Shown: positions 42,731-63,038, counted from the stretch's first letter. The stretch is 64,000 nt of DNA from an uncultured Candidatus Saccharibacteria bacterium (GCA_964434195.1 CAYSUI010000003.1:26181-90180), one strand, 5' to 3'. The notes: a model not told the origin generated them from the sequence alone. Translations and numbers: made by a program.

Positions 42731-42755
42731 CACACTCACGGAGTGTGTTTTTTTA
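42731..42755. terminator. Bidirectional terminator between the convergent A2 and B2 genes
   Basis: CACACTC-acg-GAGTGTG followed by T7. An additional upstream hairpin is present. Confidence 0.75.
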
Positions 42756-43310
42756 TAAGTCGTTTTGGCGACAACTTTTTTTGAATAAGCCGCCTTTCCA
42801 GAATCCGCATTTCTTTTTCTTGCGAATTTTTTCTTCATTGATAACCGCAGCATTGTCGGTCACACCGGCGGCTTTGGCACATAGATTGTCGTTACGAATT
42901 TGTTGACCGTCTCTTATGATGTACCAATGATTGTCGACACCGAGACGACAAGTCTCCGCGATATTTTTTAATCGTTCCTCATGATAGTCGCGGTCTACCG
43001 TAGCAGAAACAACTTCGTTTGGGTTCAAAGCCGGTTGAGCAACCACAACCAAAGGCGTTGGGGTTACCGATGCACGCCCACTTAGCTGTGGCTCTGCTGG
43101 AACTGAGGGGTCTATGCCAGCGTTGCCGCTTACTGAGCCAAGTGTGTCCGGGATGTCTCCGGACTTTGGGGTGTTCTTTGTCACTGGGGTCCCTGTAGCC
43201 GCAGCCAAACTTGGTATATGCGGCTCGTTCTCGGTTGACTTGCCTCGACATGAAGCCAAAGCAAGGGCCATAAAAATCAAAAAGAAAAGTTTAGCAAACT
43301 TTGTCTTCAT
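42753..43310 (-). CDS. Lipoprotein with a conserved Cys-containing C-terminal domain, cassette copy B2
   Basis: Lipobox LALASC. C-terminal DNHWYIIRDGQQIRND...KKKCGFWKGGLFKKSC is paralogous to B1. Confidence 0.6.
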   Translation of the reverse strand: MKTKFAKLFFLIFMALALASCRGKSTENEPHIPSLAAATGTPVTKNTPKSGDIPDTLGSVSGNAGIDPSVPAEPQLSGRASVTPTPLVVVAQPALNPNEVVSATVDRDYHEERLKNIAETCRLGVDNHWYIIRDGQQIRNDNLCAKAAGVTDNAAVINEEKIRKKKKCGFWKGGLFKKSCRQNDL

Positions 43311-43522
43311 ATCTTCCCTCCATTTTGGTCTAAAGTTTCTGAATTAGTAAGAAGTTGGAATGTACAATAATTTAACCTAATGGTCAATAGCTTTATTGAC
43401 ATAGAAGTGTGTTTTTCATTAGAATCACAAGTTCGGAAGTTTGTGCTTCTGAATACATAGAGTTGTGAGAAGCACGACTCCTCACCGAATTCAAAACTAA
43501 ATTCAAGATGGAGGAATTTTTT

Positions 43523-46090: not shown

Positions 46091-46100
46091 CCCAATATAA

Positions 46101-46124
46101 CCTGATTAAGTTCAGGTTTTTTTA
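46101..46124 (+). terminator. Intrinsic terminator
   Basis: CCTGA-ttaagt-TCAGG followed by T7. Confidence 0.75.
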
Positions 46125-46219
46125 TTTGCCCCCAGGTAGTTGACAGAATGGGCGATAATCGGTATTCTCGAGTGTCCTCCCAGTGGGAGAGACTATCAAA
46201 ACAGATGGAGGTATTTAAG

Positions 46220-47659
46220 ATGACTGATGAGACTTTGGATCCGATCAATCCCACTGGAGCTGAGCTGAAAACTGTTGTGGTTCAGGGGAACGGTCGGTCG
46301 GCGGCAAGTGAATCTGGAACCCATGTGCATCGTATGCCGATTAACAGCACTACGATGGGAGCGGAGGCTACACAGCCTTCCTCAATGGTGCAGGTAGCGA
46401 GGTTCGGCTTGGTGACGGCGACACTAGTGTTGGCTTTTTTTGCTTACAAGAGTGGGACCGTTGTTATGTACGTTGCTGCGGGTTTGCTTCTGGTGGCGAC
46501 TGCGGTCACGTTTTTTCTGACCCGCAGCAAAACGGAAGCGAGCATTGTGGGTAAAACTCAACCGGGAGTTGGTACAGTGAAACCGAAAGGCGGATCGAAG
46601 TGGAGCCGTACTTACTGGGTTGAAACCTACGAGAAGAACCCCTCAAAAATTGGGGACATGCTTAAAGGGCTAGTGAAAACTTGTTCTTTCTGGATATGTC
46701 TAATTTGGGGACTTCTGTGGTTTGCACCACTGATGATTTACACCAACGGTCGTACTCGTACCATTCTGGTACTTTTCGATGGCGGACAAGGGTTCTTAAT
46801 TCCCTTGATCATACTGGGGTGCTTTGCGGGAATCTCTATGGTTCTCCACAAAAAAGGAATCCTTGTCCCGGATAAGGTACGTGATCCGCAGACTGGACAA
46901 ATAGTTTCGGACTACAAACCTACGGTTTTCCGAACTGGAATGTTGATTACTGCGGTACTTCTGATCTGTGCATGGTTTCCATCTACGATTAAAAAAATCT
47001 ACGATGATAAACAGGTTGTACAGATTAGAAAACTAACAGGGATATCGGGACTATGGAATAAAAATTCCCACTCGTTCTATACCCCTCCGGAGACATACGG
47101 ACCGAGACCAACGTTTGGTGAATACATTTACTTCCTAAAGCTTGAGCCTTATGACGTAAATATGAAGAGCGTGGGTCTTTCGCGGTATGAAACCGCTTGC
47201 AAGATGTACGGGCACCCTGAGGTACCGAGAACTTGTTTTATACGAGTTCCTCGTTTGCAGATTACAATTGATCTGCAAGGACTCGTGGAACTTAACAACA
47301 AGAACCATCGGGTGAAGGACCTTCGCGAGGAGGAACTTTTCAGAATTGGAGTGATCCTCCAACATCTTGCGAACGTTAAGAAGCAACTCCATTTAAAGAG
47401 TACAGGGGAGGAGCAGGATGAACTGCTTGACAACTGGTTCGCGAAGGCGATTCAAGCGGCTAGAAACACCCCGTTTGGCAACGTTTCGGGACTTTCTAAA
47501 CCGTTCGATTTGCCAGTACATGTTATAAGTGTTCATCCGGATTCGGAGATAAACATCATCAACAACGGTAACGGCAATGAGCAACCCGCTCAGACCGAAC
47601 AACCGCCACCGAATGATGGTGATCCACCGGTACAAGAAAAACCGAAAGACGTTCCTTAA
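46220..47659 (+). CDS. Hypothetical polytopic membrane protein
   Basis: GGAGG RBS before the ATG at 46220. Several TM helices. Elevated GC. Confidence 0.5.
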   Translation: MTDETLDPINPTGAELKTVVVQGNGRSAASESGTHVHRMPINSTTMGAEATQPSSMVQVARFGLVTATLVLAFFAYKSGTVVMYVAAGLLLVATAVTFFLTRSKTEASIVGKTQPGVGTVKPKGGSKWSRTYWVETYEKNPSKIGDMLKGLVKTCSFWICLIWGLLWFAPLMIYTNGRTRTILVLFDGGQGFLIPLIILGCFAGISMVLHKKGILVPDKVRDPQTGQIVSDYKPTVFRTGMLITAVLLICAWFPSTIKKIYDDKQVVQIRKLTGISGLWNKNSHSFYTPPETYGPRPTFGEYIYFLKLEPYDVNMKSVGLSRYETACKMYGHPEVPRTCFIRVPRLQITIDLQGLVELNNKNHRVKDLREEELFRIGVILQHLANVKKQLHLKSTGEEQDELLDNWFAKAIQAARNTPFGNVSGLSKPFDLPVHVISVHPDSEINIINNGNGNEQPAQTEQPPPNDGDPPVQEKPKDVP

Positions 47660-47667
47660 TGGAATAC

Positions 47668-47691
47668 ACAGGACCTAGTCCTGTTTTTTTA
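47668..47691 (+). terminator. Intrinsic terminator
   Basis: ACAGGAC-cta-GTCCTGT followed by T7. Confidence 0.8.
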
Positions 47692-47722
47692 TTAAAAATC
47701 TCCTATATAAAAAATCCCGATT

Positions 47723-48556
47723 TTAGTCGGGTTTTAAAATGGTGTCGAAGTCGGGCTTGGGTGGGTGCGGATCTGGTTCAAGATACATTGTGAACTCTAC
47801 TTGTTCATCTATTACCCAAACCTCGCCTTCCTCTCTGGCATTGTTAAAATTTCCTGAGAGAGATAGAGCCTCTCTTGGAATAACCAGCCAACCGTTTTGC
47901 TGGTCGGGTTTTAGGGTAAGAACATTACCCCTAATTCTATCCGACTTGTTCACATCACCTTCTGCTATTTCAAACTTTTCTTCATCGTTTATAAAGACTC
48001 GGTTCCGAGAAAGCAAATAGCCTAGGTCCAAATGAACATTCCCCAGTAGCTTACAGAGCTCTCTTGTCTCTGGGTGCCTATAACCGCAGACAGCACTCCA
48101 TGGGTCATATAAGCAGTCACCAAGTCCGAGCAATTGAGTTGGCTCATAGTCAGAATTTGCGTCGAACGCATATTCGAATTCTATACCTTCGATCTTTTTG
48201 AACTCTGTGTAGACTAAATGCTGACACACTTGCTTCTCTACCAAAGACTTCCAATTGGCACAGAAGTAAACTTTTTCTTTACCGTCTGCTAACCAGATTT
48301 GGGTAGGGACTCCAGAACCGTTTGAATTCCTGAGATGCATTATCCCTGCGGGCTCACCTCTTTCTCGCTTTAGGACGTAACGGTGAAAACCACCCCAAGG
48401 GATATCACCGTCGAATAGGAATTCCACTGCCCAATATGTGACCTTCAAGCGTGAATCAAAATTAGGGGCGGCTTGAGGAACTTTTAGGAGCGGGGTGTTA
48501 AGTAAAATTCCTCTTGCCTCCCTTAAAACTAAAGAACTGTTTGGCATTTCTACCAT
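47723..48556 (-). CDS. Hypothetical protein, 277 aa
   Basis: AAGGAG RBS 9 nt before the ATG at 48556. The track extension to 48661 runs into the upstream terminator. Confidence 0.5.
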   Translation of the reverse strand: MVEMPNSSLVLREARGILLNTPLLKVPQAAPNFDSRLKVTYWAVEFLFDGDIPWGGFHRYVLKRERGEPAGIMHLRNSNGSGVPTQIWLADGKEKVYFCANWKSLVEKQVCQHLVYTEFKKIEGIEFEYAFDANSDYEPTQLLGLGDCLYDPWSAVCGYRHPETRELCKLLGNVHLDLGYLLSRNRVFINDEEKFEIAEGDVNKSDRIRGNVLTLKPDQQNGWLVIPREALSLSGNFNNAREEGEVWVIDEQVEFTMYLEPDPHPPKPDFDTILKPD

Positions 48557-48650
48557 ATTTCTCACTCCTTGTGTATTTTGCTTTGGACTAGTGCTTGCGT
48601 TGGCAAAAACTAGACCTGAAAACATAGCATAAGCGCTATTTTTAGGCAAT

Positions 48651-48680
48651 AAAAAACCCACACTTGATTCTTAGTGTGGG
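48651..48680 (-). terminator. Intrinsic terminator of the M23 peptidase gene
   Basis: Minus strand reads CCCACACT-aagaatca-AGTGTGGG followed by T6. Confidence 0.8.
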
Positions 48681-48686
48681 ATATAA

Positions 48687-49415
48687 TTATGGCGCATCTA
48701 CAGGATCGTCCATGGGTAAGCTTGAAAATCTAACTGATTTTAGTGGACAAGTGGCACAGGTGCGTTTTTTTACTTCAATGTGGAGATGCGGTCCTGTGAC
48801 CCTACTCCCAGTAGCTCCAACGGTGGCGATATAATCCCCTTCTTTTATTACATCACCAACTTGTAAGGGAACCCATAACTTAGTAACAGGATTCCACTTT
48901 GCGGCGGGTTTGTTGAAATGACAATAAGTGAATTGCCAGCGAGAGTTTTCAAAAATTAATCCATTGCCACAGCGACTGATTCTTCCCCTACCATCTCTCA
49001 GGGGAACTATTCTTTTTACCTCGCCGCTGTCTACTGCTTTTATAGGGGTACCTATTTTGGCTCCGAGGTCGATGGCGCTGGTTCTCCCACCATATTTTCT
49101 TTCATGAGCAGCTTCCCCATGGGTAACCGGCGCACCAGGGAGTGGGTTTGTAAAAGTCCCATCTCCAGTCCTTGAAGTATTTCTACTCGTAGGAGCTGAT
49201 GAAACGGCGAGACGACGAATTTCAGCGATTATTCCGTTTTCGACTTCGGCGTCGGACTTAACTACCCATTTACCGAATCTATTTGAAGAACCAGGTTCCT
49301 GTGGCTTAGAATTACCTCCGCCATTTTTGGTGGGACCGACGACTCTAACCGATTGCGAGAATGCCTGGCTAAATATTAGGGCTAAACCTAAGCAGGTTGC
49401 AGTTAGTTTTCTCAC
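48687..49415 (-). CDS. Secreted M23-family metallopeptidase (LytM-like)
   Basis: Signal peptide. GPHLHIEV HxH motif and upstream His/Asp ligand candidates. Confidence 0.75.
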   Translation of the reverse strand: MRKLTATCLGLALIFSQAFSQSVRVVGPTKNGGGNSKPQEPGSSNRFGKWVVKSDAEVENGIIAEIRRLAVSSAPTSRNTSRTGDGTFTNPLPGAPVTHGEAAHERKYGGRTSAIDLGAKIGTPIKAVDSGEVKRIVPLRDGRGRISRCGNGLIFENSRWQFTYCHFNKPAAKWNPVTKLWVPLQVGDVIKEGDYIATVGATGSRVTGPHLHIEVKKRTCATCPLKSVRFSSLPMDDPVDAP

Positions 49416-49588
49416 CTATTCACCCTCCTTTTTAGAATATATTGCGTAAAATAATTAATAAACTTAGCAGAGGCGGGGGGGAGTGTCAAACCCCACTGCT
49501 AAATATTTTTGACAACAAAGCAATTTTTCTTTATACATAAAGGCTTAATCTATTGAAGATTTTGCAAAACCATAGTGGAGGAAAGCTA

Positions 49589-50560
49589 ATGTATTTAACA
49601 AAAATGGACAGAGCCAACCTGGGCGCAGCTAGCAGCGCGGCCGCGAAGGCTATCTTTGCAGATTCAGATGAGTTATCTTTGGGTCTTGCTGAGGCGTTCC
49701 CTCAGTTAAGACAATATGACCCTGAATATGACTTTGACGTGTTTGGTAACCACCAGCGTTTTGTGGTGAATGCTAGACTCTCAAACGAAGAATTGGCGCT
49801 TATGGCTCCTAAACAAGCCGAGAGACAAGAAGCCGATATTGATCGCTTCCTGTACGTTAAACGAAGACTGCGTGGGGTGGCTGAGTCCGGACTTCAGTCG
49901 GTACTTCTTCCTAATATAGAACTACCAAGATTGTTTATGGCGACACCGGTTATGTATACCAGCATGCCAACATTCAAGCGAAACGGTGAACCGGTTGCGC
50001 CCGATATTATGGGACTAGCTTCGCTGTTACCTACTGAGCAATGGCAATTGGGCGTGCAGGTTTTCAATGGTCCGAACTCCCGTAATATTTCCGAGTATCA
50101 GGGAGACACCATAGGAACAGAAACCACTCGTACACTTGCTCATGCAACACGCACATTCGATATGGTAACTCTTGCTACGAATTATTTTCACGAGCTGGAT
50201 ATGCGAAGAGTACCGGACTATGACCCTTTTATCTTGGGAACAATTTTTGGATTCCCATTTACGTTCTTGCTCGGCCGGTTTTCGGACGAACCGCTGGAGC
50301 ACGTTGATTCCATGACTCACCGGACCATTGAGTTCCTGAGGCAATCAGGATCCCGCTTGGCGCAGAGGGGTTCGAGGCGTGACTTGCTATACATGACCGG
50401 GCAGTTTGTAACAAACCGAGGACAGGTACTGTGGGATACCATTCGTGCCATGGTCCAATCCCACGAACATGGTTCGCTGTTTGAATGGTTCAATACGGCG
50501 AGTTTACGACTACCTGAAGTATCTCGCTCGCAGCGAATGTTTTTACCCCAAACTAACTAA
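49589..50560 (+). CDS. Hypothetical protein, 324 aa
   Basis: GGAGGA RBS before the ATG at 49589. About 49% GC. No motif. Confidence 0.5.
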   Translation: MYLTKMDRANLGAASSAAAKAIFADSDELSLGLAEAFPQLRQYDPEYDFDVFGNHQRFVVNARLSNEELALMAPKQAERQEADIDRFLYVKRRLRGVAESGLQSVLLPNIELPRLFMATPVMYTSMPTFKRNGEPVAPDIMGLASLLPTEQWQLGVQVFNGPNSRNISEYQGDTIGTETTRTLAHATRTFDMVTLATNYFHELDMRRVPDYDPFILGTIFGFPFTFLLGRFSDEPLEHVDSMTHRTIEFLRQSGSRLAQRGSRRDLLYMTGQFVTNRGQVLWDTIRAMVQSHEHGSLFEWFNTASLRLPEVSRSQRMFLPQTN

Positions 50561-50578
50561 ATAGTTTGGGATTTTTTT
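50547..50578 (+). terminator. Intrinsic terminator
   Basis: CCCAAACTA-loop-TAGTTTGGG followed by A T7. The stop codon is in the loop. Confidence 0.8.
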
Positions 50579-50653
50579 ATTGACAATAGATGAGGAATAT
50601 GTTAAACAAATATTTCATTTCTAAATGTTTTTAGCAGAAGAAGGAGGAAAGGA

Positions 50654-51285: not shown

Positions 51286-51316
51286 AAAAACCGACCACGG
51301 GGTCGGTCTTTTTTTC
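51286..51316. terminator. Bidirectional intrinsic terminator
   Basis: A5-CCGACC-acgg-GGTCGG-T7. Confidence 0.8.
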
Positions 51317-52329
51317 TATCTTTTATTTATTAAATTTACAATGAGCTTTACCATGGTGTCTTTCTGAGCTGGACTACTCTCTGCTACTAATAAAGCGAGC
51401 GCTGCGAGGGCTGTGTCGTTTATTTTTCTTTCGCCCCTCTTGTTGTAGAGATAATTATTTTCTACTAGGTAGAGCAGGAACAGCAACGAACCGATTCTTT
51501 TGTTACCGTCGGCGAAGGGATGGTCTTTTATAGTGAAATACAGAATGTGGGCTGCGCGTTCTTCTATGCTTTCGTAAAGGGGTTTGCTTTGGAAAGTTTG
51601 TTCGACGTTTCCGAGAAGTGCTTTAAGTTTGAATTCGACTTCCCTACCGAATAGCTGACTCGCTTCCCTATTTTTAATGAGCCGGGATTTGAATTGCTCG
51701 ATGGATTTTTTTACTTTTTCGTAATTTAATTTATACGAAATTTTTTTAGTGACGTTTTCTATAGCGAGACTATCTTCGTCGTACTTATTTAGCAGGACCC
51801 AAGTATTGGCGTAGTCGGTAATTATTTTAAGTAAGTCTTTTTCATAACCGTCTATGCGGTTAGTCTCGAGTGCGTTTTGGAAAAGTTTTATGGTGCTTTC
51901 CAGTTCTTTAAGTTTTACTTCTTGGCGTTCTTTAAGACGGTCGGCATTAACTATGTAGCCTTTTAGAATGTAGTCGCGGAGTTTCTGGGTTGCCCAAATA
52001 CGGAACTGGGTGCCACGCTTGGACTTTACCCTGTAGCCAACGGAGATAATGACGTCGAGATTATAAAATGTAGTAGGTCTATTTATACTTATACCGGAAT
52101 TTCCGGTATTGGCTTGTTTAAGCGAAGTTTTTTCACGCGAAAGCTCCCCTTCTTTAAAAATATTACTTATGTGCTCGTTTATAGTATTAACGTCTTTCTG
52201 GAATAATTCAGCCATTTGTGCGGGCGACAACCAGACAGATTCGTTTGCAAGATTTACTTTAATAGTGGGACCGTTCGAATCTTTATAAATTACTATTTCA
52301 CCTTTTGGCTGTTCTTTTATTTCTCGCAT
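51316..52329 (-). CDS. RhuM/Fic-family protein
   Basis: N-terminal RhuM-type block (VIYKDSNGPTIKVNLANESVWLSPAQMAELF) and a C-terminal Fic motif HPFADGNKRIG. Confidence 0.75.
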   Translation of the reverse strand: MREIKEQPKGEIVIYKDSNGPTIKVNLANESVWLSPAQMAELFQKDVNTINEHISNIFKEGELSREKTSLKQANTGNSGISINRPTTFYNLDVIISVGYRVKSKRGTQFRIWATQKLRDYILKGYIVNADRLKERQEVKLKELESTIKLFQNALETNRIDGYEKDLLKIITDYANTWVLLNKYDEDSLAIENVTKKISYKLNYEKVKKSIEQFKSRLIKNREASQLFGREVEFKLKALLGNVEQTFQSKPLYESIEERAAHILYFTIKDHPFADGNKRIGSLLFLLYLVENNYLYNKRGERKINDTALAALALLVAESSPAQKDTMVKLIVNLINKR

Positions 52330-52429: not shown

Positions 52430-53349
52430 CTATTGTGTGTTTTTTTCGATCGTTGCTAAAAGATCTCGCAGATCATTTGCGGTTGCTTGTTCAGCAGAGA
52501 TGATTTGTTCCTGGGTTGCTCCTAGCGAAGGAATGTCACTCGGGGACCAAAGGACGAAAATATTTTTAGTATATGACGCTCCGGGTCTAAATGTATCTCT
52601 TCGACCGGCGAACTTGTTCACTACTTCGGAAGACATGACTTTTCTTATCTTTGCACTTTGCATAATCAAACTTTCTGCCAATGGCACTTTAGTTAAACCG
52701 ATTTCTCCTGGGTACTTTGCATGCGGAAGTACGAGTAAATTCACATCTCTTGGGTTATAACCAGATTCTTTAATTATGTGTTCGGCAGGTAGCTGGTCTA
52801 GTCCCCCATCTGTATGGAACTCATTGCCCACTTCTTTTGTGTTTTTTGTTAAACCTGGAATGGTCATGGAGGCTTCTAGCACTTGCCAGAATTTTTCTTC
52901 GGACATTTCTTTTACCGAATGACTTACTAACTCCCCTGTCTTGGAATTGGTTGTCATTATATATGTACCGTGAGGCGTACTCCTTAGCTCTTCAAATTTT
53001 ATTGGATAAGGTCCATATTTTAATGTCTCCATTAAACCATGTATATCTACTGTTTCATTTGGTGAAGAAATTAATTTTCGCTCTTCAAAGAATCTCCTCC
53101 CTGAACCATGCAAAGTGCGTGCTCATGAGACAAATTCTTCATATTTTTTTTACCAATTTCTAAACTATCTTTTGATGTGGCATAGGATCCTATAGCTGCA
53201 CCTGTAGATTGCCCGTAGATTATATCTACTGCAACATCTAGCCCATGCTCAAACAAAACTTCCATTTGTGCAGCACCAATGGCCCCAGATGCCCCACCAC
53301 CACTTATTAAAATTATTGTTCGGACCTGAGAAAGCCACTTGGGACACCT
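52430..53349 (-). pseudogene. Patatin-like phospholipase, disrupted by a frameshift and lacking a canonical start
   Basis: A GGGASG oxyanion loop is encoded at about 53290-53310 in a frame with no ATG/GTG/TTG after the upstream stop. GxSxG (GQSTGA) lies in ORF 53071..53265. The catalytic DGG lies in ORF 52430..53113 in a different frame, with a 43-bp overlap. Confidence 0.55.
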
Positions 53350-53614: not shown

Positions 53615-54757
53615 TTAGACTATTTCTTGAAACTCAGATACGGTAAGGCGGAGGTATTTTGGGTCGTCTATGTAGATACCTACCTCGGCCCACTGGGCTT
53701 CGGTGACGGCGGTGTATTCTTTTGTGGGCATGATACCGGGATGATCTCCGCGCGGGTCTATCCACCGTGTGGCGGCTTGGCCGTCGGTTTTTCTGCGCCA
53801 GCGGAGATATCTGACCGCTTCGACTCGGTACTTTCGCTGTGGGTCGCCGGGAGCAGCGAAACGAACCACTTCGTAGGTTCCGTCTCCCTGATCCACAATA
53901 ATAGTGGTTTCATAGCGTTTTTTCCGCGCGGTCTCGACGCGAGTCTCAAGATCGGCCGGTGGCTCGGTGAGGATAAGTTCAATTACCGAACCCCCTCCCC
54001 AACCGCGTCTGTCCGGACCTTCGCAGACTTTGACGTGTACACACCGGGAGCCGAAGATTTTTTGGAATTCAACCTTGAGGCTTGATTTGGCTTTCGCCGA
54101 ATCCACTAACCCCCAGCCACCACTGGCTTTTATGAATGTACTAGCTTTATTCGAACGTCCCTGTTGGAACGTGCCGTGGTTGTGCAGGCGGAGAAGGACC
54201 ACTTCCTCTTTTGTCATCCTCTCCGGTATTGGTGCCGGTGGCAGATCCACCTGGTTCCAGCCGCCAGGAATTTTTTCTATTGCACCTCCGGTCCAGCGAC
54301 GAAGGACTGGCGTCTCACCCCAACCGCACTGTGGGCAGTTGTTCGGGAATACCTTTTCGTGCCAGAGCTTAGTCATACGGAACGCGAGTTTGTAGTCACA
54401 GAATTCAGCGGGGCGAATTTGTTCGCCTGGATTGTAGCGGTAGCCGCAACCCGAGCAAAGGATTACGAGATAAGGTTCTTCTCCAGCGTTTTCGTCAGGA
54501 CGGACCACCGGAAGCCAACCTTTTTTTGTTTTTTCCCAAAGGTCGCGTTTGACCGTGCGGGTGAGTGTATCGCGCTCGAAACACACGAATTTCGAGTCTG
54601 GGTACTTACCTCCGTACTTCGAAAAAAAATCGAGTTCGTCTTGGACTTCCACGTAGTACTCATTTGCGAACCCGAAACCCGAGCGATACCCGTCCTCACC
54701 CGGAACCTTACTGCTGAAACTCTTGAAAAATACTGCACTTAACTTTGCCATATTCAT
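53615..54757 (-). CDS. Hypothetical zinc-ribbon protein, 380 aa, in the GC-rich island
   Basis: AAGGAG RBS. CSGCG...(36 aa)...CPQCG C4 zinc ribbon. About 55% GC. Confidence 0.6.
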   Translation of the reverse strand: MNMAKLSAVFFKSFSSKVPGEDGYRSGFGFANEYYVEVQDELDFFSKYGGKYPDSKFVCFERDTLTRTVKRDLWEKTKKGWLPVVRPDENAGEEPYLVILCSGCGYRYNPGEQIRPAEFCDYKLAFRMTKLWHEKVFPNNCPQCGWGETPVLRRWTGGAIEKIPGGWNQVDLPPAPIPERMTKEEVVLLRLHNHGTFQQGRSNKASTFIKASGGWGLVDSAKAKSSLKVEFQKIFGSRCVHVKVCEGPDRRGWGGGSVIELILTEPPADLETRVETARKKRYETTIIVDQGDGTYEVVRFAAPGDPQRKYRVEAVRYLRWRRKTDGQAATRWIDPRGDHPGIMPTKEYTAVTEAQWAEVGIYIDDPKYLRLTVSEFQEIV

Positions 54758-54874
54758 ACTGTCTCCTTATTGTTGATGTTGTTGATTTTGAATTCTTTAT
54801 TTAAATAGATGATTACCTTCCCCTACTTAAATAAAGGGGGGTGACAAAGATTGACTTCGTCACCTCCGAAAGAC

Positions 54875-56962
54875 TTACAGTTTTGAAGCAATGTTAATGC
54901 CATAGGTTTTTTCGACCTCGGCAATTTTTTCGCACTGCGCAAGCGTTAGGCCTGCTTTCGGGATGAAAGATTCTACTTCGGGATGTTCGTCTCGTTTCGA
55001 TTCTTTCTTCCAAGAGAAATACATCTCACCTGCCTCGCCGTCCACGAAATCCCACTCGTACCTACCTTCTGCCTTGCGGGGTCGGCAGTAGTTGCGATCA
55101 GCCTCGCGCTCGGTACCGTCGGCACGTAGAACATAACCACCGCTCCAGCCGCCCTCACAGTAGACCTCGAGTTGCAAGTAGATCTCGCCAGCCCTGTGAC
55201 GCTCGATGAGTGGGTCGAGGGAGTCCATGAGCGCGTCGTACTCCGCGACTTTCGCTAGAAATGCGTCGCGGAGTCCCCACTGATCTTCGACCGGCAGCTC
55301 GGCGAACTTCTTGCCTTGCTGTTCCTCCACAAAATTTTGCAGACTGCTACGCTGTCCCCAATTGAGGAAGTCGTAGCGGCCGTCGTTTTCGTAGAGGTCG
55401 AACAGGTCGTCCCAGGCTTCGGCGAGCAACGTGGCGATGGGCGCGTCGATTGGGTTTTCCGGCTCATGGTCCCACCAGGTGAACCACTCGCCTTCGAGTT
55501 GTTCGAATTCGCCACCGATGAGTTCGGCGTCTTCACGCGACATGACGAAGTGAAACTTGTCGTCGTACATGATTCGGCCGTGCGGTACGTGTTTTAGGCC
55601 TGGGTGGTTCTCGATGACTACCCAGGGTCCCGCGAACGAGCGGAGCGGCATGAGTGCTAGGATTTCATCCGTCAAACTTTCGGCAAACTTACTTACTTCG
55701 TCTGAGTCTGGAAACTCGAACGAAGCAATTTCCTTCTTCACCCAGCCGAGGATTTGCCGGCGAACCCCTTCGCGGGAAAAGTCTTCGTGTACGTCGAAGA
55801 TTCGACTATGTACGTTGGTTTTCCCGAGACCTTTTTCGTGATCCTCGCGGCCAAGCAACAGCTCGCAATCGTATTTGACGACCACGGCCGGATGGCGCTC
55901 GCTCCACGTTCTTGTGCTTGTGGTAAAGCCGCACAGCTCGTCACTGTCGCGGCCGTTCCACTCCGATACTTCCTCGCTATAGTAGAACGTCCACACCTCG
56001 GCCCTCACTTCGAACTTGCGCTCGCCTGCGAGTTGCGTGAGCTGCGGCAGCGCGCTCCAGGTTTTCACTTGGGTGATAAGCGCGTCCGCCTCGGCTTCGA
56101 AGCCGCCCTGAGCGGAAGCTTCAACTTTGGGGTATAGCCCGAAAGTTTTACCCCAAATTTCTTTTCCACCTTGAAGAACTTTCCAGCGCTGACTCACCCG
56201 CTCTGGTTGCTTGACCCAGCCGCGAGTTTGCAATTTCGGAGGATCAAAGGTAATTGGCGCTTCGAGTTCGAAACTGAGTTGCTCGTCGCATGACCTAACC
56301 TTGAATTCCCATCGCAGACGGATTTTAGCTTCGGCCAATTTCTCCTCCATAACTGTTGGCCAGACATTTTTCATGCTGTCCCAGCCTTTTCGTTCGCTCA
56401 CCACTTCATGCACGCCCAGATCAATTTTAGGAACCCAGCCGCGGCCGTTGATTTCGATTCTGACTTTTTGAATGACCCGATAGACGGGGCCATTCTCTAA
56501 GTCTGCGGAAACAAATTCGGCTCTGGGATTCTCTCCGCTGACGCTGACCGCGTACAGCAGCTCAAATCCGCCGCCGATATTGCCGCTACCGCCACTGATT
56601 GGAAGTGTGGCGCCGATGAGCGCCAGGACTTCCGTCGGGTTTTGCTCGAAGCGAAGTTTTTCGGATTCTTGCTTCGCGAGAATTTCCTGGCGGTTTTTTT
56701 CTTCCGCCTCAACCCTCTGCTTTTCGGCTTCGAGCTGTTTGTTGTGTTCCTCGAAGGTCTGAGCGCTCGTTGCGCTCCAACCTTTGTCGGTTTGCTCGGT
56801 GGAAATGACCCAAATCATTTTTCTCGCCAGATCTGATCCGGCGGGAACTTGGGGTGAGAAGGATTTACGGTGAATGAAAAACTTTTTTCCGCCGTACTGA
56901 AAAAAACCGAACCCTTTATCCGAGAACCACGTTGAAATCGTTGCCTCAAACTGTTGGTACAT
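54875..56962 (-). CDS. Hypothetical protein, 696 aa, with an N-terminal cold-shock domain, in the GC-rich island
   Basis: AGGGGG RBS 7 nt before the ATG at 56962. ISTWFSDKGFGFFQYGGKKFFIHRKSF is a cold-shock-domain RNP1 block. The next part is coiled-coil. The remaining roughly 550 aa are unrecognised. About 58% GC. Confidence 0.6.
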   Translation of the reverse strand: MYQQFEATISTWFSDKGFGFFQYGGKKFFIHRKSFSPQVPAGSDLARKMIWVISTEQTDKGWSATSAQTFEEHNKQLEAEKQRVEAEEKNRQEILAKQESEKLRFEQNPTEVLALIGATLPISGGSGNIGGGFELLYAVSVSGENPRAEFVSADLENGPVYRVIQKVRIEINGRGWVPKIDLGVHEVVSERKGWDSMKNVWPTVMEEKLAEAKIRLRWEFKVRSCDEQLSFELEAPITFDPPKLQTRGWVKQPERVSQRWKVLQGGKEIWGKTFGLYPKVEASAQGGFEAEADALITQVKTWSALPQLTQLAGERKFEVRAEVWTFYYSEEVSEWNGRDSDELCGFTTSTRTWSERHPAVVVKYDCELLLGREDHEKGLGKTNVHSRIFDVHEDFSREGVRRQILGWVKKEIASFEFPDSDEVSKFAESLTDEILALMPLRSFAGPWVVIENHPGLKHVPHGRIMYDDKFHFVMSREDAELIGGEFEQLEGEWFTWWDHEPENPIDAPIATLLAEAWDDLFDLYENDGRYDFLNWGQRSSLQNFVEEQQGKKFAELPVEDQWGLRDAFLAKVAEYDALMDSLDPLIERHRAGEIYLQLEVYCEGGWSGGYVLRADGTEREADRNYCRPRKAEGRYEWDFVDGEAGEMYFSWKKESKRDEHPEVESFIPKAGLTLAQCEKIAEVEKTYGINIASKL

Positions 56963-57253
56963 TAGTTGCCCCCTAAATATTTTCAAAGTTATTACCAATT
57001 TTAGAAATTCGATAGTTCTGCTCTGTTGCAGGTATTAAATTTCCAAAAAAGGCGGGGAGTACTTTATTCTCTCCTCTTACTGTTCTGTATAAGGAATTGA
57101 ATGTGAGCATTTTATTTTGAGTTTAAGCGTTAGTATACTATAAATTTATATAAATGTCAATAATATTGATACAAAATTATATATTTTGTAATATATATAA
57201 ATAAAAATAAGCTTTCTATGCTTGTTTTTATAAGTTATTTTGTAACAAATGTG

Positions 57254-57282
57254 TTTACAAAAATTATAGAGTGTGATATAAT
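57254..57282 (+). promoter_or_regulatory. Sigma-70-type promoter of the first TrmB-like gene
   Basis: TTTACA, then a 17-nt spacer, then TATAAT. Confidence 0.55.
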
Positions 57283-57311
57283 TACATTAGAATATCGATT
57301 AAATCTCATAG

Positions 57312-57333
57312 ATTCCCGAATGATTTCGGGAAT
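57312..57333 (+). promoter_or_regulatory. Palindrome ATTCCCGA-atgat-TCGGGAAT in the 5-prime UTR
   Basis: 8-bp perfect inverted repeat. It is the second of only two copies in the window. The other is at 26376-26395. Confidence 0.5.
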
Positions 57334-57355
57334 AACACAGGAGCAAATTAATACT

Positions 57356-58141
57356 ATGAATATTCCACACAACCATACTTATTTTGAACATCTTACCCTT
57401 GCTGGACTTACTTCTCAGCAGGCTTTGGTGTATGAGTCTTTACTTAGGGGTGGAGCTCGGGCGGCGAGTAAAGTTGCAAATGATACACATTTAGAAAGGG
57501 TTATTGCGTACCGTGTGCTCGACCAGCTTTTAGAAATGGGATTGGTAAATAAAAAGGACGACCCGGGTAAAGTGGCGCGTTTTGAAGCGGCGCATCCCAG
57601 CCGTATTCAGGAGCTTATTGAACAAAGAGAAAAAGATGCACGGACTGCAAAAGAGTCTTTTGCTTCGGTGCTTTCTTCTCTTTCTTCTGAGTACAGCTTG
57701 TCGGTTGGGAAACCTTCGGTGCAATTTTTTGAAGGACTGGAAGGAATTCGTACGGTGGCATTCGATAACTTAACTGCAAGAGGCGAGATACTCGCCTACC
57801 TCGACATGTCGGTTATTCAGGCGCATCTAAAAGACCTTAACGATGAGTATGTTAAGGTCAGAAGACGACTTAAAATAAAGAAACGAAATTTAGTTAATGA
57901 TACTCCGGAAAACCGCGTGTATTTAGCAGACTACCACCGTGATATTACAGATATTCGCTTAGTAGACCGTGCTCACTCCCCCATGCAGTTTAAGAGCATG
58001 CTTCAGATTTACGACAACAAAATTAGCTATATGACTTTTGAAAAAAACAAATACATTGGAGTTATTATTGAAGACGCGCATATCGCAGAACTACATAGAC
58101 AGCTGTATGAATTTACTTGGGAGAAAGCACGGGCATTATAA
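57356..58141 (+). CDS. TrmB-like HTH transcriptional regulator, paralog 1
   Basis: N-terminal wHTH (LTLAGLTSQQALVYESLL...) and a C-terminal effector-like domain. Paralogous to 60412..61173. Confidence 0.6.
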   Translation: MNIPHNHTYFEHLTLAGLTSQQALVYESLLRGGARAASKVANDTHLERVIAYRVLDQLLEMGLVNKKDDPGKVARFEAAHPSRIQELIEQREKDARTAKESFASVLSSLSSEYSLSVGKPSVQFFEGLEGIRTVAFDNLTARGEILAYLDMSVIQAHLKDLNDEYVKVRRRLKIKKRNLVNDTPENRVYLADYHRDITDIRLVDRAHSPMQFKSMLQIYDNKISYMTFEKNKYIGVIIEDAHIAELHRQLYEFTWEKARAL

Positions 58142-58150
58142 AACCCCGCG

Positions 58151-59317
58151 CTAGGCGGGGCGTGGTGCATCGGGTGGAATTTCTAGCTCTACTCTTGGTT
58201 CGCCGGTTTCTAAAGTAAAATGTCGTCCTTCTCTGAAACCCATTTTTATATATTTAGGAAGCATAGGTTGATTGGGACTGGTTATGCTTCTTATTTTTAT
58301 ATTTCTTTTTCGTTCATCGGTAAGTGTTTGGCTCAAAAATAACTCACCCACTTTTTCTTTCTGATAGCTTTTGCGTACATTAAACCCACCGGCATATATA
58401 CTCTTTACCTCTCCGTCTTCGCCGCGCTCGTCTATATAATAGACTCCGGCGACTATTATTTCTTTGTCCTTTAATACCGCGAGCTTTGCTTTGGGGTTAT
58501 TTTTGAGCTCATTAAATTTACGGTTTAGTTCTTCGATATACTCACTTGAAGTTTTTTCTTCCCCTTCTTTTGTTATCCAATTTTCTGTGTTTATTTCTAT
58601 GAGAGCCTGGATATTTTCTGGTGGTATATTGTTTCCGTAGTCAGATTCAATAGTTAGAGTCTTTATTTTATGAAGTGAAAAATCTGGATCGCTTTCTAGA
58701 GCGGCACGAATGGTTTGTGTGGTTAGCAGTGCGTCTGCGTTAATATGTGCAAGCTCTTTGGGTGATTGCTCGCTAGTTACATATGAAAGACTTATGCCTG
58801 TACCCTGATTACCGAGGACACGAGCTGCACGGTGTATAAGGTTTTGCTTTGCTAATGTACTTACTGCTCCTTTTTTGACATCTTCTGCCTGAAACGATTC
58901 CTCCACAAAGGTGTCGACTTTTTCGGCGTTGTCTAGAATTGCGTTAAACGTAGACATTAATTCGGATACTGCGCGAATGTCTCTTACGTTGCGGGTGAGT
59001 GAAACAAGCGTTAGGGCGTAGTCTTCACTTACTTCGGCTACAGAAAACCCACTTAATAACTCTACCTGAGTTTGTTCGGGCAGCCTTTGTATTCCGGAAC
59101 GGAGCTGTGCTGTTGCACCTGTTGGGTATTCTGCGTATTTCTGCAAAAATTTTGCTAAAGGAACTTTTGCGCGGTCTGGTATTTTGTAGGCTGTACTAAT
59201 ATTTAGTACAGCGTCTATATATTCTGTTTCTTTCCCTTCTTGGTATTCTAAAGATTCTGTTTCTGAAGGGACATAAGAGTCGTGTGGGTTATGTCCGGGA
59301 GTATGGAATTCAAGCAT
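58151..59317 (-). CDS. Hypothetical protein with a C-terminal GNAT-like acetyltransferase fold
   Basis: C-terminal block VRKSYQKEKVGELFL resembles the GNAT motif A (R/Q-x-x-G-x-G/A). The N-terminal roughly 280 aa are unknown. The start is chosen at ATG 59317. The track gives 59386. Confidence 0.45.
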   Translation of the reverse strand: MLEFHTPGHNPHDSYVPSETESLEYQEGKETEYIDAVLNISTAYKIPDRAKVPLAKFLQKYAEYPTGATAQLRSGIQRLPEQTQVELLSGFSVAEVSEDYALTLVSLTRNVRDIRAVSELMSTFNAILDNAEKVDTFVEESFQAEDVKKGAVSTLAKQNLIHRAARVLGNQGTGISLSYVTSEQSPKELAHINADALLTTQTIRAALESDPDFSLHKIKTLTIESDYGNNIPPENIQALIEINTENWITKEGEEKTSSEYIEELNRKFNELKNNPKAKLAVLKDKEIIVAGVYYIDERGEDGEVKSIYAGGFNVRKSYQKEKVGELFLSQTLTDERKRNIKIRSITSPNQPMLPKYIKMGFREGRHFTLETGEPRVELEIPPDAPRPA

Positions 59318-59363
59318 AAGTTTTATATTATAGAAATAGTATAGCGAAGAGTAGGAAGATATT

Positions 59364-59745
59364 AAAAAAGCGCAGCGGGTTAACACTGCGCTTGTTTAAT
59401 TTTCGCTACTTCCGGATTCTGGGCTCAATTATGTTAAGCGCACAAGAGGAAGCTTAACGTTGGTACGTAGCTTGATCAACCGGGAAAGCCCGACTCTGAT
59501 TCGCAAGCTCTTAAAAACTTGGGAAGCTTCCTTCAGGAGCAAAACCATTTCTATTTTCTGGTACTATAAATTCTCCTAACATTTATAGATTTTGATTTCC
59601 ATGACTTTACGGGTTGCACCTGTCATGGGCGGTTTAGAGCATTGTACTCCCTTTTCTAGATTCTGTTTAGAATCCAGGAAAGGGAGCGCGAAAGAAAATT
59701 CTTTCGCGGCCAATGTTTATAGCACATTGGCAAAGCGTAAAAATC
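59364..59745 (-). ncRNA. Candidate structured noncoding RNA or long regulatory leader, ending in an intrinsic terminator
   Basis: Minus-strand series of stable hairpins: CGCGAAAGAA/TTCTTTCGCG, CTCCCTTT...AAAGGGAG, CATGAC/GTCATG and CTATAAAT/ATTTATAG. The 3-prime end is AGCGCAG-loop-CTGCGCT followed by T6 at 59392-59364. No convincing ORF. Confidence 0.4.
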
Positions 59746-60376: not shown

Positions 60377-60405
60377 TTGACAATTTTTTATTTTTGGCAT
60401 ATAAT
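60377..60405 (+). promoter_or_regulatory. Consensus sigma-70 promoter driving a near-leaderless TrmB-like gene
   Basis: TTGACA, then a 17-nt spacer, then TATAAT. The ATG is 7 nt downstream of the -10 box. Confidence 0.65.
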
Positions 60406-60411
60406 TTAGAT

Positions 60412-61173
60412 ATGTTTGAATCACTTTTAGGAAAAATCGGGCTCAGTGAAAAAGAAGCGCAGATTTATGAATTATTGGTTTCTGTTGGACCGAGCAATAT
60501 TAAAAGTATTCTTTTTCATACCAAGCTTAAACGTGGGAATGCGTATTACTTGCTGGATAATTTGAAAGCTTTGGAACTTGTTGAACAAACACTTGTGCGC
60601 GGTCGTACTGTTTTTTCTGCGCGGAACCCGGAGCAATTGGAACTATTGTTGGCAAAACAAAAAACCGAAGTTGCTAAGGCGGAAGAGGAACTTCGTGGAT
60701 CACTCCCCCACTTGCGCACTCTCTTTCAGACCGCTGCGCATAAACCTGGTGTTCGATTTTATGAAGGCATTGAAGGTATTAAAGCAATTCACCGGGAAAT
60801 GCTTTCGGAGCGAAAAGAAATTTTAGCGTATGTATTTTTAAAAAAAGAATGGGACAATGTTTTGGGTAACGATTTTTGGAAATGGTATTACCAGGAACGA
60901 ATTAAAAACAATATAAGTGTACGGGCAATTGCCGTAGACTCACCAGAAGGGAGAGACTACAAAGCGAAAGATGCAAAAGAGCAAAGAGAAACCCGTTTGG
61001 TAAATGCGAAGGAATACCCTATTTCTATTGAAAAAAATGTTGTAGGGAACAAAGTGGCGTTTTTGAGCTTAAAACCAGATGAACAAGTGGGTGTGTTAGT
61101 GGAGAACACTGCGATAGCAGAGACAGAGCGAGCAATTTTTGAACTTTGCTGGAAACAAATACGACCACAGTAA
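60412..61173 (+). CDS. TrmB-like HTH transcriptional regulator, paralog 2
   Basis: wHTH (SEKEAQIYELLVSVGPSN...) and a C-terminal domain aligning with paralog 1 (VRFYEGIEGIKAI vs VQFFEGLEGIRTV). Confidence 0.6.
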   Translation: MFESLLGKIGLSEKEAQIYELLVSVGPSNIKSILFHTKLKRGNAYYLLDNLKALELVEQTLVRGRTVFSARNPEQLELLLAKQKTEVAKAEEELRGSLPHLRTLFQTAAHKPGVRFYEGIEGIKAIHREMLSERKEILAYVFLKKEWDNVLGNDFWKWYYQERIKNNISVRAIAVDSPEGRDYKAKDAKEQRETRLVNAKEYPISIEKNVVGNKVAFLSLKPDEQVGVLVENTAIAETERAIFELCWKQIRPQ

Positions 61174-61187: not shown

Positions 61188-63038
61188 TTATTGCTCCTTA
61201 CCTACTCTGCCGTAACGGTAACGCACCTCTTCTGGAGTTAAATGTTTGGGCACTTGCCCTTTGGTTCCCGGCTTTCTTGCACTCACCACCAGTTCTTTTA
61301 CTTCTAACTGTTCCATGCCGTCTACTCCTGGTGTTGTTACCAGATATGTGTCTATTTGCACATCTACAAAACCGGTTGCTCGAAGAAGATTAGCTATTTC
61401 GCGGCGACCGGGGAAAAATCTGGGAGTAGAGTCGGATGTTTCTACTGTATTTGCAACACCAGGCGCAGTGGATGTTTCGTCTCGAATAGTTCCGTATGGT
61501 TCTTGTGGGTGTTCGTTGTGGTATGCGGCGAGCGATTTTGCGTAGGTACCTACTGTACGGTCTGGAATTTCTATGGTTATGAGCCCACCCTCGCACAGAA
61601 GGAAGAATGCTTCGCGTAAAACTTTTCTTTGGTTATCTTGTGTACCGGCGTCGCAAAAAGTGTGCCAATCGAAGGAAACCATTTCGAAGGGATTATTAAA
61701 GAAGAATTCTTTACCAAACTTTGCATTACTCAAATCTTCTTTTGCACCGCTTCCAAATAGGTTATTTGCATTTACTAAACCATCGGATTGTTTTTGTCTT
61801 AAACCCTCAAAGGTGTCTTCCCTAAGGTCTAGCATGTTACCTTTTATAGGAATTAAATTTGCTTTTAGGATGGTGAGATCGGTGATGATTTGTTCTTTCT
61901 GTATTATTCTTTGATTTACTAGCTCAACTAAAGGTGAGGATGGGTCACCTTTTTCGTATTTGGCAATTTCTTCTTCTAAGCGACTGTAAACTTTTTTTAA
62001 TTGTTCCTCGGATAGATCTATACCAACAATTTTTTTTCCGAGAATTACCATAATAGAATCTATCCTGGCCTCACCGATGCCGACATCGAGGACTAGACGC
62101 GGGTGCCTGTCGCCTATTGTAAGTTCATCTGGTACCCATGCCCCTGAAAGTGCTTTTAATTTATGGCGAATTGCTTCGGTAGTGCTTGCAGTTTTACCTT
62201 CCCAAACTCTTAGGTCCGAATTATTGTAGAGGTTTGCCTGTTTGTCGCTTAGCGCTTTCCCTTCCATGAAATCGGGCTTGTTCTCCTCTGTATACTTAAG
62301 TTCTTTTGCTATGAGTAGGCAACTTGCTATTTCTTGGCTGGTGCTTGCGTGTAGGAAATAATCAAAATAATCTCGTTCATATGACGGTAGCCCACCTTCG
62401 ACATGCAGAATAATTATTGGCAGTGGTTTATTCTGTAGTTTGGCGGAAACTAACAGTTTATGTATTTCATCTGCAGCTTGTCGGTGGTTGCTAAAATCTT
62501 CCTGACTTGTATAGGAGAGAGTATAGGTTTTGTTTGGGTCAAGTTCGAAAGTACTAACGTCTAACTCTTTATTTGGTATGGACTCTATGCTTAAAGTTAC
62601 ATTCGCAACTTGACTCGCTTCGGGAGTGGAATATTTGTCTAGAAGTTTAATACCTTGCTCTTTGAACGACTCAGCACTATTTGAGAGTGAGAGAAAATTT
62701 ATGAGTGTTGATTCTAACTCTTTTAACTGCATTAAAAGTTGTTCTGGTGAAGTTAACTTAATATATGTGTCCCCTATTACAATTGTTACCGACTCTTTTC
62801 TTTCAACACTGGCGAGTGTTTGTGTTAAAGTCTCTGAATATTTTTTTAGTGCTTTAACAATTTGCTCGGTCCACAATTCTAGACCTTGTATGCGTGTTGC
62901 ATACATTTCTAATTTAGTAGTTACTTCACTGATAGCGACGTCGCAGTTTACAATAGACTCCTCTATATTACTGCGAAAAGTTGATTCGAGTTGTTCCCCT
63001 TCCGGGGACTGGTGCGTTTCTTGTTCGATTCTTTTCAT
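61188..63038 (-). CDS. Large protein with a C-terminal class I SAM-dependent methyltransferase domain
   Basis: Motif I VLDVGIGEARID (hhDhGxGxG-like) followed by the post-I acidic residue and motif IV-like FDWHTFCD. The N-terminal roughly 300 aa are an unknown coiled-coil-rich region. Confidence 0.55.
   Translation of the reverse strand: MKRIEQETHQSPEGEQLESTFRSNIEESIVNCDVAISEVTTKLEMYATRIQGLELWTEQIVKALKKYSETLTQTLASVERKESVTIVIGDTYIKLTSPEQLLMQLKELESTLINFLSLSNSAESFKEQGIKLLDKYSTPEASQVANVTLSIESIPNKELDVSTFELDPNKTYTLSYTSQEDFSNHRQAADEIHKLLVSAKLQNKPLPIIILHVEGGLPSYERDYFDYFLHASTSQEIASCLLIAKELKYTEENKPDFMEGKALSDKQANLYNNSDLRVWEGKTASTTEAIRHKLKALSGAWVPDELTIGDRHPRLVLDVGIGEARIDSIMVILGKKIVGIDLSEEQLKKVYSRLEEEIAKYEKGDPSSPLVELVNQRIIQKEQIITDLTILKANLIPIKGNMLDLREDTFEGLRQKQSDGLVNANNLFGSGAKEDLSNAKFGKEFFFNNPFEMVSFDWHTFCDAGTQDNQRKVLREAFFLLCEGGLITIEIPDRTVGTYAKSLAAYHNEHPQEPYGTIRDETSTAPGVANTVETSDSTPRFFPGRREIANLLRATGFVDVQIDTYLVTTPGVDGMEQLEVKELVVSARKPGTKGQVPKHLTPEEVRYRYGRVGKEQ

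Follow-up and report, generated by a model that had tools for sequence, protein, structure and literature searches.

The closest named architecture to the locus described here is that of the Type I CoCoNuT systems, in which CnuB consists of a cold-shock domain (CSD), a coiled coil and an McrB GTPase, and CnuC combines a nuclease with zinc ribbons of the CPxC type (Bell et al., eLife 2024, PMC11090510). We analyzed a 64-kb stretch of DNA from a member of the Patescibacteria, or candidate phyla radiation (CPR), which we call the window (GCA_964434195.1, CAYSUI010000003.1:26181-90180), and within it a pair of adjacent genes, here named A and B. Like Type I CoCoNuT (PMC11090510), the pair comprises two genes, one for a protein with an N-terminal CSD followed by a coiled coil or charged helix and one for a partner with a CPxC-type zinc ribbon; it is likewise predicted to act on RNA, and it lies in an accessory neighborhood. 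Unlike CnuB, protein A lacks an McrB-like GTPase: neither a Walker A nor an NxD motif is conserved in it, and AAA_5 and PADLOC models do not match it. Unlike CnuC, protein B gives no DUF2357 or PD-(D/E)xK nuclease signal in Pfam, NCBIfam or PADLOC. We consider the likeness to be an analogy of architecture only, not one of membership.

Parts of the locus also resemble other described proteins. As in the CspA-family and Y-box CSDs (PF00313), the ~65 N-terminal residues of A match the whole domain and keep RNP1- and RNP2-like motifs; unlike Csp proteins, which are single domains of ~70 aa, A has 695 aa, its CSD falls under the Pfam threshold on its own, and it has a family-specific loop, RG-DL-G. 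At least five helicases of the DEAH/RHA type (HrpA-like, HA2) have the C-terminal module of A at their own C terminus, and those of two loci (L101 and L102) adjoin divergent TrmB paralogs; unlike these helicases, A has no helicase core and carries the CSD and a helix in the N-terminal place. TrmB-regulated systems share with the locus a winged helix-turn-helix domain, a divergent arrangement and two palindromes in the common promoter region. The locus differs from known TrmB systems in its bacterial (CPR) rather than archaeal host and in its half-site, TTTTGTR / YACAAAA, which is derived from three loci only.

Our reading, to which we give a probability of roughly one-half, is that A and B form an old, lineage-restricted accessory operon of deep-branching Patescibacteria that is controlled by the adjoining divergent TrmB regulator. 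Protein A is a probable RNA-binding CSD protein of a sparse, uncharacterized family, and the most probable role of the operon is RNA-directed conflict or stress handling.

Conservation of the gene pair and its host lineage

The window had previously been annotated by a model from the DNA alone (the sequence-only reading), which proposed two co-oriented adjacent genes at 53615-56998. Both are real open reading frames (ORFs) on the minus strand (Table 1), and the genes are located where they had been placed; the end of the interval is 36 nt too far. A TTG codon at 56998 is a possible extension that would give an ORF of 707 aa (54875..56998) for A. We take the ATG at 56962 as the real start because AGGGGG, a ribosome-binding site (RBS), precedes it at 56969-56974, and because the called protein (P0001, of which identical copies occur on 8 contigs) and the N terminus of the ortholog agree with it. 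The RBS of B, AAGGAG, lies 5' of the gene at 54763-54768, so that both of the host-like RBSs named in the sequence-only reading were found.

The best matches of the window's rpoB among 185,579 species-representative genomes are 60 to 67% identical and come mostly from Patescibacteria, with the top matches at 65 to 67%. Because rpoB identity is at best 65 to 67%, the host belongs to a poorly sampled, deep-branching CPR lineage. Searches of the 64-kb window for tRNAs and Rfam families returned zero matches.

Orthologs of A (P0002, 45% identical) and B (P0004, 51 to 53% identical; 52% between the window and this contig) occur together on one 9.3-kb contig, L001, with the order kept and a spacer that is alike. 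The genome of L001 is the only other carrier of B, and A and B are therefore adjacent in both genomes that have B. The slot is shared as well: the order GNAT-like gene, TrmB, A, B is the same in the window and in L001, where the TrmB proteins are 59% identical and the GNAT-like proteins 38% identical, and both of these flanking genes have host-like GC content. Given this divergence of the flanking proteins, the pair predates the split between the window and L001 lineages and is thus not recent; the age argument draws on L001 as the single relative with the same locus. In L001, B is followed by a third small gene of the GC-rich block (5714-6007; 97 aa, GC at third codon positions [GC3] 0.64), which has no counterpart in the window.

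L089, a further locus, comes from the sample that also yielded L001. It contains the C terminus of a GNAT-like gene, a TrmB gene, a gene of 224 aa and an A-like protein of 936 aa that has a CxxC...CxxxC ribbon at its own C terminus. The window's GNAT-like gene gives a weak match to the C terminus of a 790-aa neighbor in L089. The L089 TrmB is 42% identical to the copy that adjoins A in the window, compared to 28% for the window's other paralog; overall, the TrmB copies adjoining A form one ortholog group (42 to 59% identical, compared to 28 to 30% to paralogs). The A proteins of the three loci are only 23 to 45% identical. Distant A-family genes lack B, and some also lack a TrmB gene of the window's ortholog group. 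Because A-family genes occur without B, we regard B as a partner in one sub-lineage rather than a defining component of the family. The two-component module proposed in the sequence-only reading is therefore retained as a pair conserved in two genomes, but not as a general arrangement, since distant A-family genes lack B and B has no relatives past one ortholog.

Table 1. Coordinates of the genes, domains and candidate regulatory features discussed in the text (positions in the window; A and B, the two genes under study; res, residues; AF2, AlphaFold2)
Feature	Position	Strand	Basis or remark
Gene A, 695 aa: cold-shock domain, charged helix, ~470 aa without matches, C-terminal module	54875..56962	-	ORF, ATG and RBS, orthology
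Divergent cold-shock domain of A, res ~5-70	56753..56950	-	Family profile against solved CSDs
Charged helical linker of A, res ~70-110, E/K/R/Q-rich	56633..56755	-	AF2 single helix H70-107, pLDDT ~60-67
C-terminal module of A, ~105 aa, res ~585-690	54893..55210	-	Alignment A5; common to DEAH/HA2 helicase fusions
Hairpin 1, terminator-like, 10-bp stem then CCCCUUUAUU	54840..54864	-	Terminator scan; just 3' of A stop codon
Hairpin 2, inverted repeat CTTTATTTAAGTAG-N14-CTATTTAAATAAAG	54795..54836	-	14 nt at 93%; upstream of B RBS; folds as second stem
Gene B, 380 aa, orphan protein	53615..54757	-	ORF, identical copies on 9 contigs, one ortholog
Putative zinc ribbon of B, C101-x2-C104 ... C141-P-Q-C144	54326..54457	-	Motif level; AF2 confidence low here
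Best-predicted domain of B, res 183-300, alpha-beta-beta-alpha-beta-beta-alpha; possibly LAGLIDADG-like, degenerate	53858..54211	-	
Promoter-like site for A-B operon, TTGACA-17-TATACT, 11/12	57132..57160	-	Scan; -35 and -10 align in L001 and L089
Proximal operator-like palindrome, TACAAAAT-N5-ATTTTGTA	57170..57190	.	Ends 10 nt upstream of A -35
Distal operator-like palindrome, TTTTGTAA-N9-TTACAAAA	57238..57262	.	Overlaps -35 of TrmB promoter
TrmB-family regulator, divergent from A	57218..58141	+	PF01978, E=3.5e-9, 36.8 bits against cutoff of 25.6
GNAT-like gene, tail-to-tail with TrmB	58151..59386	-	Weak Pfam Acetyltransf_10, E=3.6e-4; called as 388 aa (58151-59317) in L002
rpoB (1167 aa) and presumed rpoC (1318 aa)	6139-13689	-	rpoC assigned by size and adjacency only

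Base composition and age of the pair

The sequence-only reading attributed the pair to recent horizontal acquisition on the strength of a GC content of 55 to 58%. Windowed GC and GC3 values show that the region is distinct, although the genes themselves are at ~53% and values of 55 to 58% are reached only in single 200-nt or 1-kb bins. The GC content is 53.4% for A, 52.8% for B and 52.6% for the island as a whole, compared to 41.8% for the window and 25 to 34% for the sequence directly on either side. At a scale of 3.4 kb, the GC content of the window peaks at the island, and the highest value for a non-overlapping segment is 48.1%. The excess lies mainly in GC3, which is 0.62 for A and 0.55 for B, compared to 0.377 +/- 0.054 for 40 other ORFs (maximum 0.535). 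Codon usage is also anomalous, as the sequence-only reading had expected: island codon usage is at r=-0.25 with the host genes and correlates with that of the L001 block (r=0.64) and the L089 block (r=0.60), mainly through a preference for NNC over NNT codons plus CTC and CGC.

A sharp step from flanks of 25 to 34% and a genome of 42% to genes of 53%, codon usage unlike that of the host, and relatives that are GC-richer still (genes of 59 to 67% GC in L088, L090, L092 and L100) are what a recent arrival would be expected to leave. The same bias, however, is found across the family. At nearly every locus examined, the family gene is GC-richer than its own contig (L001, L084, L088-L093, L095, L097 and L100-L104), for example 0.67 compared to 0.35-0.43 in L100 and 0.58-0.62 for the block in L095 compared to 0.44-0.46. 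We detected no integrase or transposase among the neighbors and no flanking direct (att-like) repeats, and no phage- or plasmid-like relatives of the pair in 50,697 phage records or IMG/VR, nor any for B in metagenomes of the Joint Genome Institute (JGI). High GC content and the preference for NNC codons are a trait common to the gene family and no mark of recent arrival, and with the pair in the same slot in L001, the acquisition proposed earlier loses its support. Only "recent" and "mobile now" are disfavored, and an ancient foreign origin is possible. Possible sources of the high GC content include such an origin with slow amelioration, repeated exchange in a GC-richer pool, or selection on codon usage. 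We rejected high expression as the cause of the high GC3 because the other GC3-rich genes of the window are penicillin-binding proteins and ORFs without matches, and the GC3 of rpoB and rpoC is ordinary.

Elsewhere in the window, GC is moderately raised (44 to 50%) at 36000-50600, a region with two transglycosylase/penicillin-binding-protein genes (36671-38767 and 43508-46090) and several ORFs without a Pfam match. A 225-aa ORF at 30572-31249 has a GC3 of 0.535.

Domains and family of protein A

As whole proteins, A and B have zero significant matches in Pfam, NCBIfam, PHROGs and PADLOC, and no known defense family in PADLOC-DB v2 matches either of them at E<=1, in agreement with the earlier statement that neither belongs to a named family. 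An exhaustive phmmer search of 1.84 billion representative proteins, in which A and B were run as one concatenated query, returned for A the 45% ortholog and 21 distant relatives. No relatives of A were found among the 185,579 species-representative genomes, and a word-indexed homolog search with an 8-member alignment, in which candidate selection was saturated, returned only A and its ortholog.

The sequence-only reading recognized a CSD in A from its KGFGFF block, and the family as a whole bears this out. The Pfam CSD model (PF00313) gives no match with the whole of protein A, and with the N-terminal 76 residues alone it remains below the gathering score (E=0.18, 12.1 bits against a cutoff of 27, half of the domain). 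A profile of 19 family N termini (A4), in contrast, matches solved CSDs, including 5xv9, 3a0j, CspB, CspA and Y-box CSDs, at E=1.4e-8 to 1e-4, over profile positions 5-71 of 78 and with the whole domain covered. Because the family profile covers entire solved CSDs at E=1.4e-8, we consider the domain real but divergent. It contains an RNP1-like motif (KGFGFF, residues 16-21) and an RNP2-like motif (FFIH, residues 28-31), in which G17, G19, F29 and H31 are invariant across the family. CSDs adopt an OB fold, a five-stranded beta-barrel to which single-stranded nucleic acids bind; in A, AF2 places strands at residues 19-23, 26-31, 51-58 and 61-69, with a pLDDT of only 41-52.

The charged segment that follows is alignable across the family yet variable, and the ~470-aa middle region matches no family. 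Outside the CSD, the 8-member alignment of A-like proteins contains no invariant polar or catalytic residue, and A and its relatives have no conserved P-loop, DExH, McrB or other catalytic motif. A P-loop candidate, GKEIWGKT at residue 266, was rejected because it is not conserved in the ortholog.

The C-terminal module provides the main basis for a functional assignment. It was detected by phmmer in P0010, P0013 and P0020, and by profile search in 8 further metagenome proteins (E 1e-18 to 1e-46); no relative was found among solved structures. Five module carriers (P0013 and proteins of L098, L099, L101 and L102) have DEAD/Helicase_C/HA2 cores. DEAH/HA2 helicases are RNA helicases. Because the module is joined elsewhere to RNA-helicase cores, an RNA-related role is suggested for A, and RNA binding is the best-supported of its predicted activities. 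The C-terminal ~105 aa define a new domain, carried by either CSD proteins or DEAH/HA2 helicase proteins.

Several loci of the family have layouts of their own. The helicases of L101 (2310-8720) and L102 (30-8559) have 1338 and 1442 aa and both end in the module; L101 is arranged as TrmB (divergent), a 454-aa gene and the helicase. At the locus of P0006, a distant A-like protein, a second copy of the module is found in a 307-aa gene (L084 4363-5286), which together with a weak SAVED-domain gene and a radical-SAM gene occupies the upstream region (L084 1945-5286). A 7-kb block in L095 (2255-9558; GC 0.53-0.62, flanks 0.44-0.46) is headed by a Csx3-like gene and includes the CSD-family protein P0007 and TerC, with a divergent TrmB paralog.

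Protein B

Apart from its one ortholog, B has no relatives in 5.8 billion clustered proteins, the 1.84 billion representatives, IMG/VR, phage records or JGI metagenomes, and none among solved structures. The C4 zinc-ribbon motif reported by the sequence-only reading is present as a putative zinc ribbon, and the ortholog keeps all four cysteines (C101, C104, C141 and C144) as well as the NPGEQIRPA knuckle.

The AF2 model of B (mean pLDDT 52) is best in residues 183-300, which reach 60-81. Top Foldseek matches for B include I-WcaI, I-SceI, the bI3 maturase and I-DmoI, all of them weak (E>=0.02). Sequence comparison gave no support for this fold: no Pfam LAGLIDADG match was found even at E<=10, and hhalign against I-CreI was not significant. 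At the position of the LAGLIDADG motif, B has L-H-N-H-G (residues 191-195), in which the catalytic acidic residue is replaced. In these respects (weak fold scores, no sequence similarity, no catalytic acid), B differs from LAGLIDADG proteins such as WhiA and the bI3 maturase. From the model, a degenerate LAGLIDADG-like domain in B is a tentative lead, and we would not be surprised to see it fail.

Other assignments for B were rejected. An HNH nuclease built on LHNHG or on the CxxC pairs was dismissed because there is no conserved His or Asn between the Cys pairs and no profile match, and B and its ortholog have no D...(D/E)xK pattern in common. We judged as noise a match to a phage tail-fiber PHROG (E=0.002, 49 residues of B) and matches to Cys-rich peptides or L37e (E ~0.2). 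A Rosetta-stone link between B and the zinc-ribbon C-terminal extension of P0012 and P0015 was not significant by hhalign, with only the CPxCG knuckle aligned, and neither was a link to the 224-aa and 329-aa neighbors of distant A-like genes.

Predicted regulatory region and spacer

The intergenic regions between TrmB and A in the window, L001 and L089 align. The start of the TrmB gene is probably M47, at 57356, and a promoter scan found a promoter-like site at 57254-57282 that is consistent with this start. Two operator-like palindromes, both built on TTTTGTR / YACAAAA, are kept in the window, L001 and L089. The L001 counterpart of the proximal palindrome, GCACAAAT-N8-TTTTGTGC, occupies the same position. 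The distal palindrome has its sole match in the 64 kb at this site (0.07 expected), and in L001 and L089 there is also one match per contig, always in the TrmB-A intergenic region. A looser palindrome, ACAAAW-N-WTTTGT (ACAAAACTTCCATTTGT), occurs downstream of B at 53253-53269, within a patatin remnant; with 2 found compared to 0.5 expected, this is probably chance. If the predicted A promoter is used, the mRNA leader of A is ~165 nt long (56963-57131, minus strand), a length similar to that of the E. coli cspA leader. In L001, the leader is much shorter.

TrmB-like regulators seem to be unusually abundant in these CPR genomes. Three paralogs, 28 to 34% mutually identical, lie within ~8 kb (57218-58141, 60394-61173, and L002 1171-1935, just past the window end), and TrmB paralogs also adjoin family genes in L095, L101 and L102.

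Both inverted repeats that the sequence-only reading reported in the A-B spacer were located, and they fold as two tandem hairpins (z=-5.6 in the window, z=-6.6 in L001) whose stem sequences differ between the two loci. Hairpin 1 is formed by GGTGACGAAG...CTTTGTCACC; in the same place, L001 has a stem of 14 bp that differs in sequence and is likewise followed by CCCUUUAUU. The L001 equivalent of hairpin 2 is a 19-bp stem. In L089, a canonical terminator hairpin follows the A-like gene.

Proposed operon and alternative explanations

Under the operon reading, TrmB would bind both palindromes and thereby control its own promoter, which the distal site overlaps, and also the A-B promoter, just upstream of which the proximal site is located. 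The CSD of A would bind single-stranded RNA, the charged helix would space or oligomerize the protein, and the C-terminal module, which is interchangeable between CSD and RNA-helicase carriers, would serve as an output or partner-binding domain. Between the genes, the terminator-like hairpin may hold the level of B below that of A. CspA and CspE act as antiterminators on terminator-like hairpins, and the CSD of A may tune read-through into B in a similar way. Protein B would be a partner that binds nucleic acids and is restricted to this lineage; it would carry a zinc ribbon and perhaps a LAGLIDADG-like domain whose catalytic site is degenerate.

Several points weigh against this reading. The activity of every part of the operon is predicted only, and for the operators and the terminator the prediction draws on conservation at no more than two or three loci. 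Adjacency of a TrmB gene is in itself weak evidence because TrmB paralogs are very common in these genomes, and extension of the operator to L095 was rejected because a different TrmB paralog is located there and the palindrome is absent. CSDs bind not only RNA but also single-stranded DNA (ssDNA). The AF2 models are poor (mean pLDDT 43 for A and 52 for B), and as a result ~470 aa of A and most of B are structurally unread. Finally, the operon reading does not account for the persistence of high GC3 after such divergence.

The best-surviving alternative is a novel two-gene anti-phage defense or abortive-infection system, in which A senses foreign RNA or ssDNA via its CSD, and B or the middle of A is the effector. 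The family is patchy, sparse and extremely divergent, with domains shuffled (a CSD or a DEAH helicase on the same C-terminal module), the zinc ribbon either fused (P0012 and P0015) or separate (B), and blocks of odd composition, as might be expected of a defense system; the parallel to Type I CoCoNuT CnuB/CnuC (PMC11090510) points the same way. Neighbors also fit: a PDC-S23 gene and a patatin remnant in the window, SAVED and radical-SAM genes near P0006, a Csx3-like gene in the P0007 block, and HicA near P0020. We take this neighborhood as suggestive of conflict functions and not as functional evidence. On the other hand, A and B have no PADLOC match, no nuclease, NADase, protease, pore or NTPase is recognizable, and A has no conserved catalytic residues. 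Moreover, B is not a conserved partner across the wider family, and the locus is syntenic and old rather than a variable hotspot. The absence of family matches is weak evidence for defense because CPR genomes are full of unannotatable genes. Overall, we consider a defense system possible but doubtful. The novel nucleic-acid-targeting module put forward in the sequence-only reading is plausible as a hypothesis; no nuclease or other effector domain was identified in A or B.

Alternatively, A and B could form a stress-response RNA-chaperone operon, with A as an enlarged cold-shock protein, TrmB as the sensor of the condition, and B as an accessory RNA- or DNA-binding factor. A true CSD, a C-terminal module common to RNA-helicase-type proteins, a dedicated local regulator with conserved candidate operators, a conserved terminator-like hairpin such as CspA-family antiterminators act upon, and stable synteny are all consistent with this explanation. 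Such chaperones are, however, usually widespread and conserved, whereas the A family has ~20 relatives in 1.84 billion proteins and none in 185,579 genomes; in addition, the codon usage of the pair anticorrelates with that of host genes, and the other GC3-rich genes of the window are not translation or stress genes. These observations make the chaperone explanation unlikely.

A recent foreign island or mobile remnant, whether a gene pair carried as cargo by a phage or plasmid or a free-standing gene for a LAGLIDADG homing endonuclease together with a passenger, is very unlikely: beyond the composition of the island, the weak LAGLIDADG-like fold matches of B would favor it, but the shared slot in a relative with flanking proteins 38-59% identical, the lack of flanking repeats, integrase or transposase, the zero matches in phage records and IMG/VR, and the replaced acidic residue of B (HNHG) with no Pfam LAGLIDADG signal all argue against it.

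Returning to the operon that we favor, a bolder extension can be stated, which we consider speculative and rather improbable. In this extension, A, B and TrmB would constitute an undescribed RNA-directed immunity or conflict module of Patescibacteria: the CSD (in sister systems, the DEAH/HA2 helicase) would read foreign or aberrant RNA, the C-terminal domain would signal, and the zinc-ribbon protein B, with a re-purposed LAGLIDADG-like domain (His for Asp), would be the effector. The common GC-rich codon usage would then mark a gene pool circulating among CPR genomes.

Neighboring genes

The sequence-only reading described a decayed patatin gene, a Fic/RhuM gene and TrmB regulators next to the pair, and all are present. 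The RhuM/Fic gene (51316-52329, minus strand) is a full-length match to the PADLOC phage-defense candidate PDC-S23 (E=8.5e-120), and many PDC-S05 models match it too. The patatin-like phospholipase (52430-53330, minus strand) is decayed, with a 227-aa ORF that spans only Pfam positions 76-187; the GGGxxG and GxSxG (GQSTGA) motifs are encoded upstream of it, in a different ORF or frame (53071-53265 and beyond), and we therefore interpret the gene as frameshifted or truncated. A 616-aa protein (61188-63038, minus strand) has a weak SAM-methyltransferase signature and a marginal match to the PADLOC "mad2" model (E=0.006).

Significance

Patescibacteria account for a large part of bacterial diversity, and most of their accessory genes have been unreadable so far. 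This locus forms a defined unit of two proteins and one local TrmB regulator, together with a promoter, a candidate operator and a terminator-like hairpin between the genes. Within AT-rich genomes, the lasting bias of the family toward high GC3 and NNC codons is a puzzle, and it calls for caution in taking GC steps as evidence of recent transfer. The swapping of the C-terminal domain between CSD and DEAH/HA2 carriers points to an uncharacterized RNA-handling function. If the locus does serve defense, it would be a new type of system without an NTPase and without a known nuclease; if it is instead a stress or RNA-chaperone operon, the TrmB-like regulators that abound in CPR bacteria would gain a first operator and regulon.

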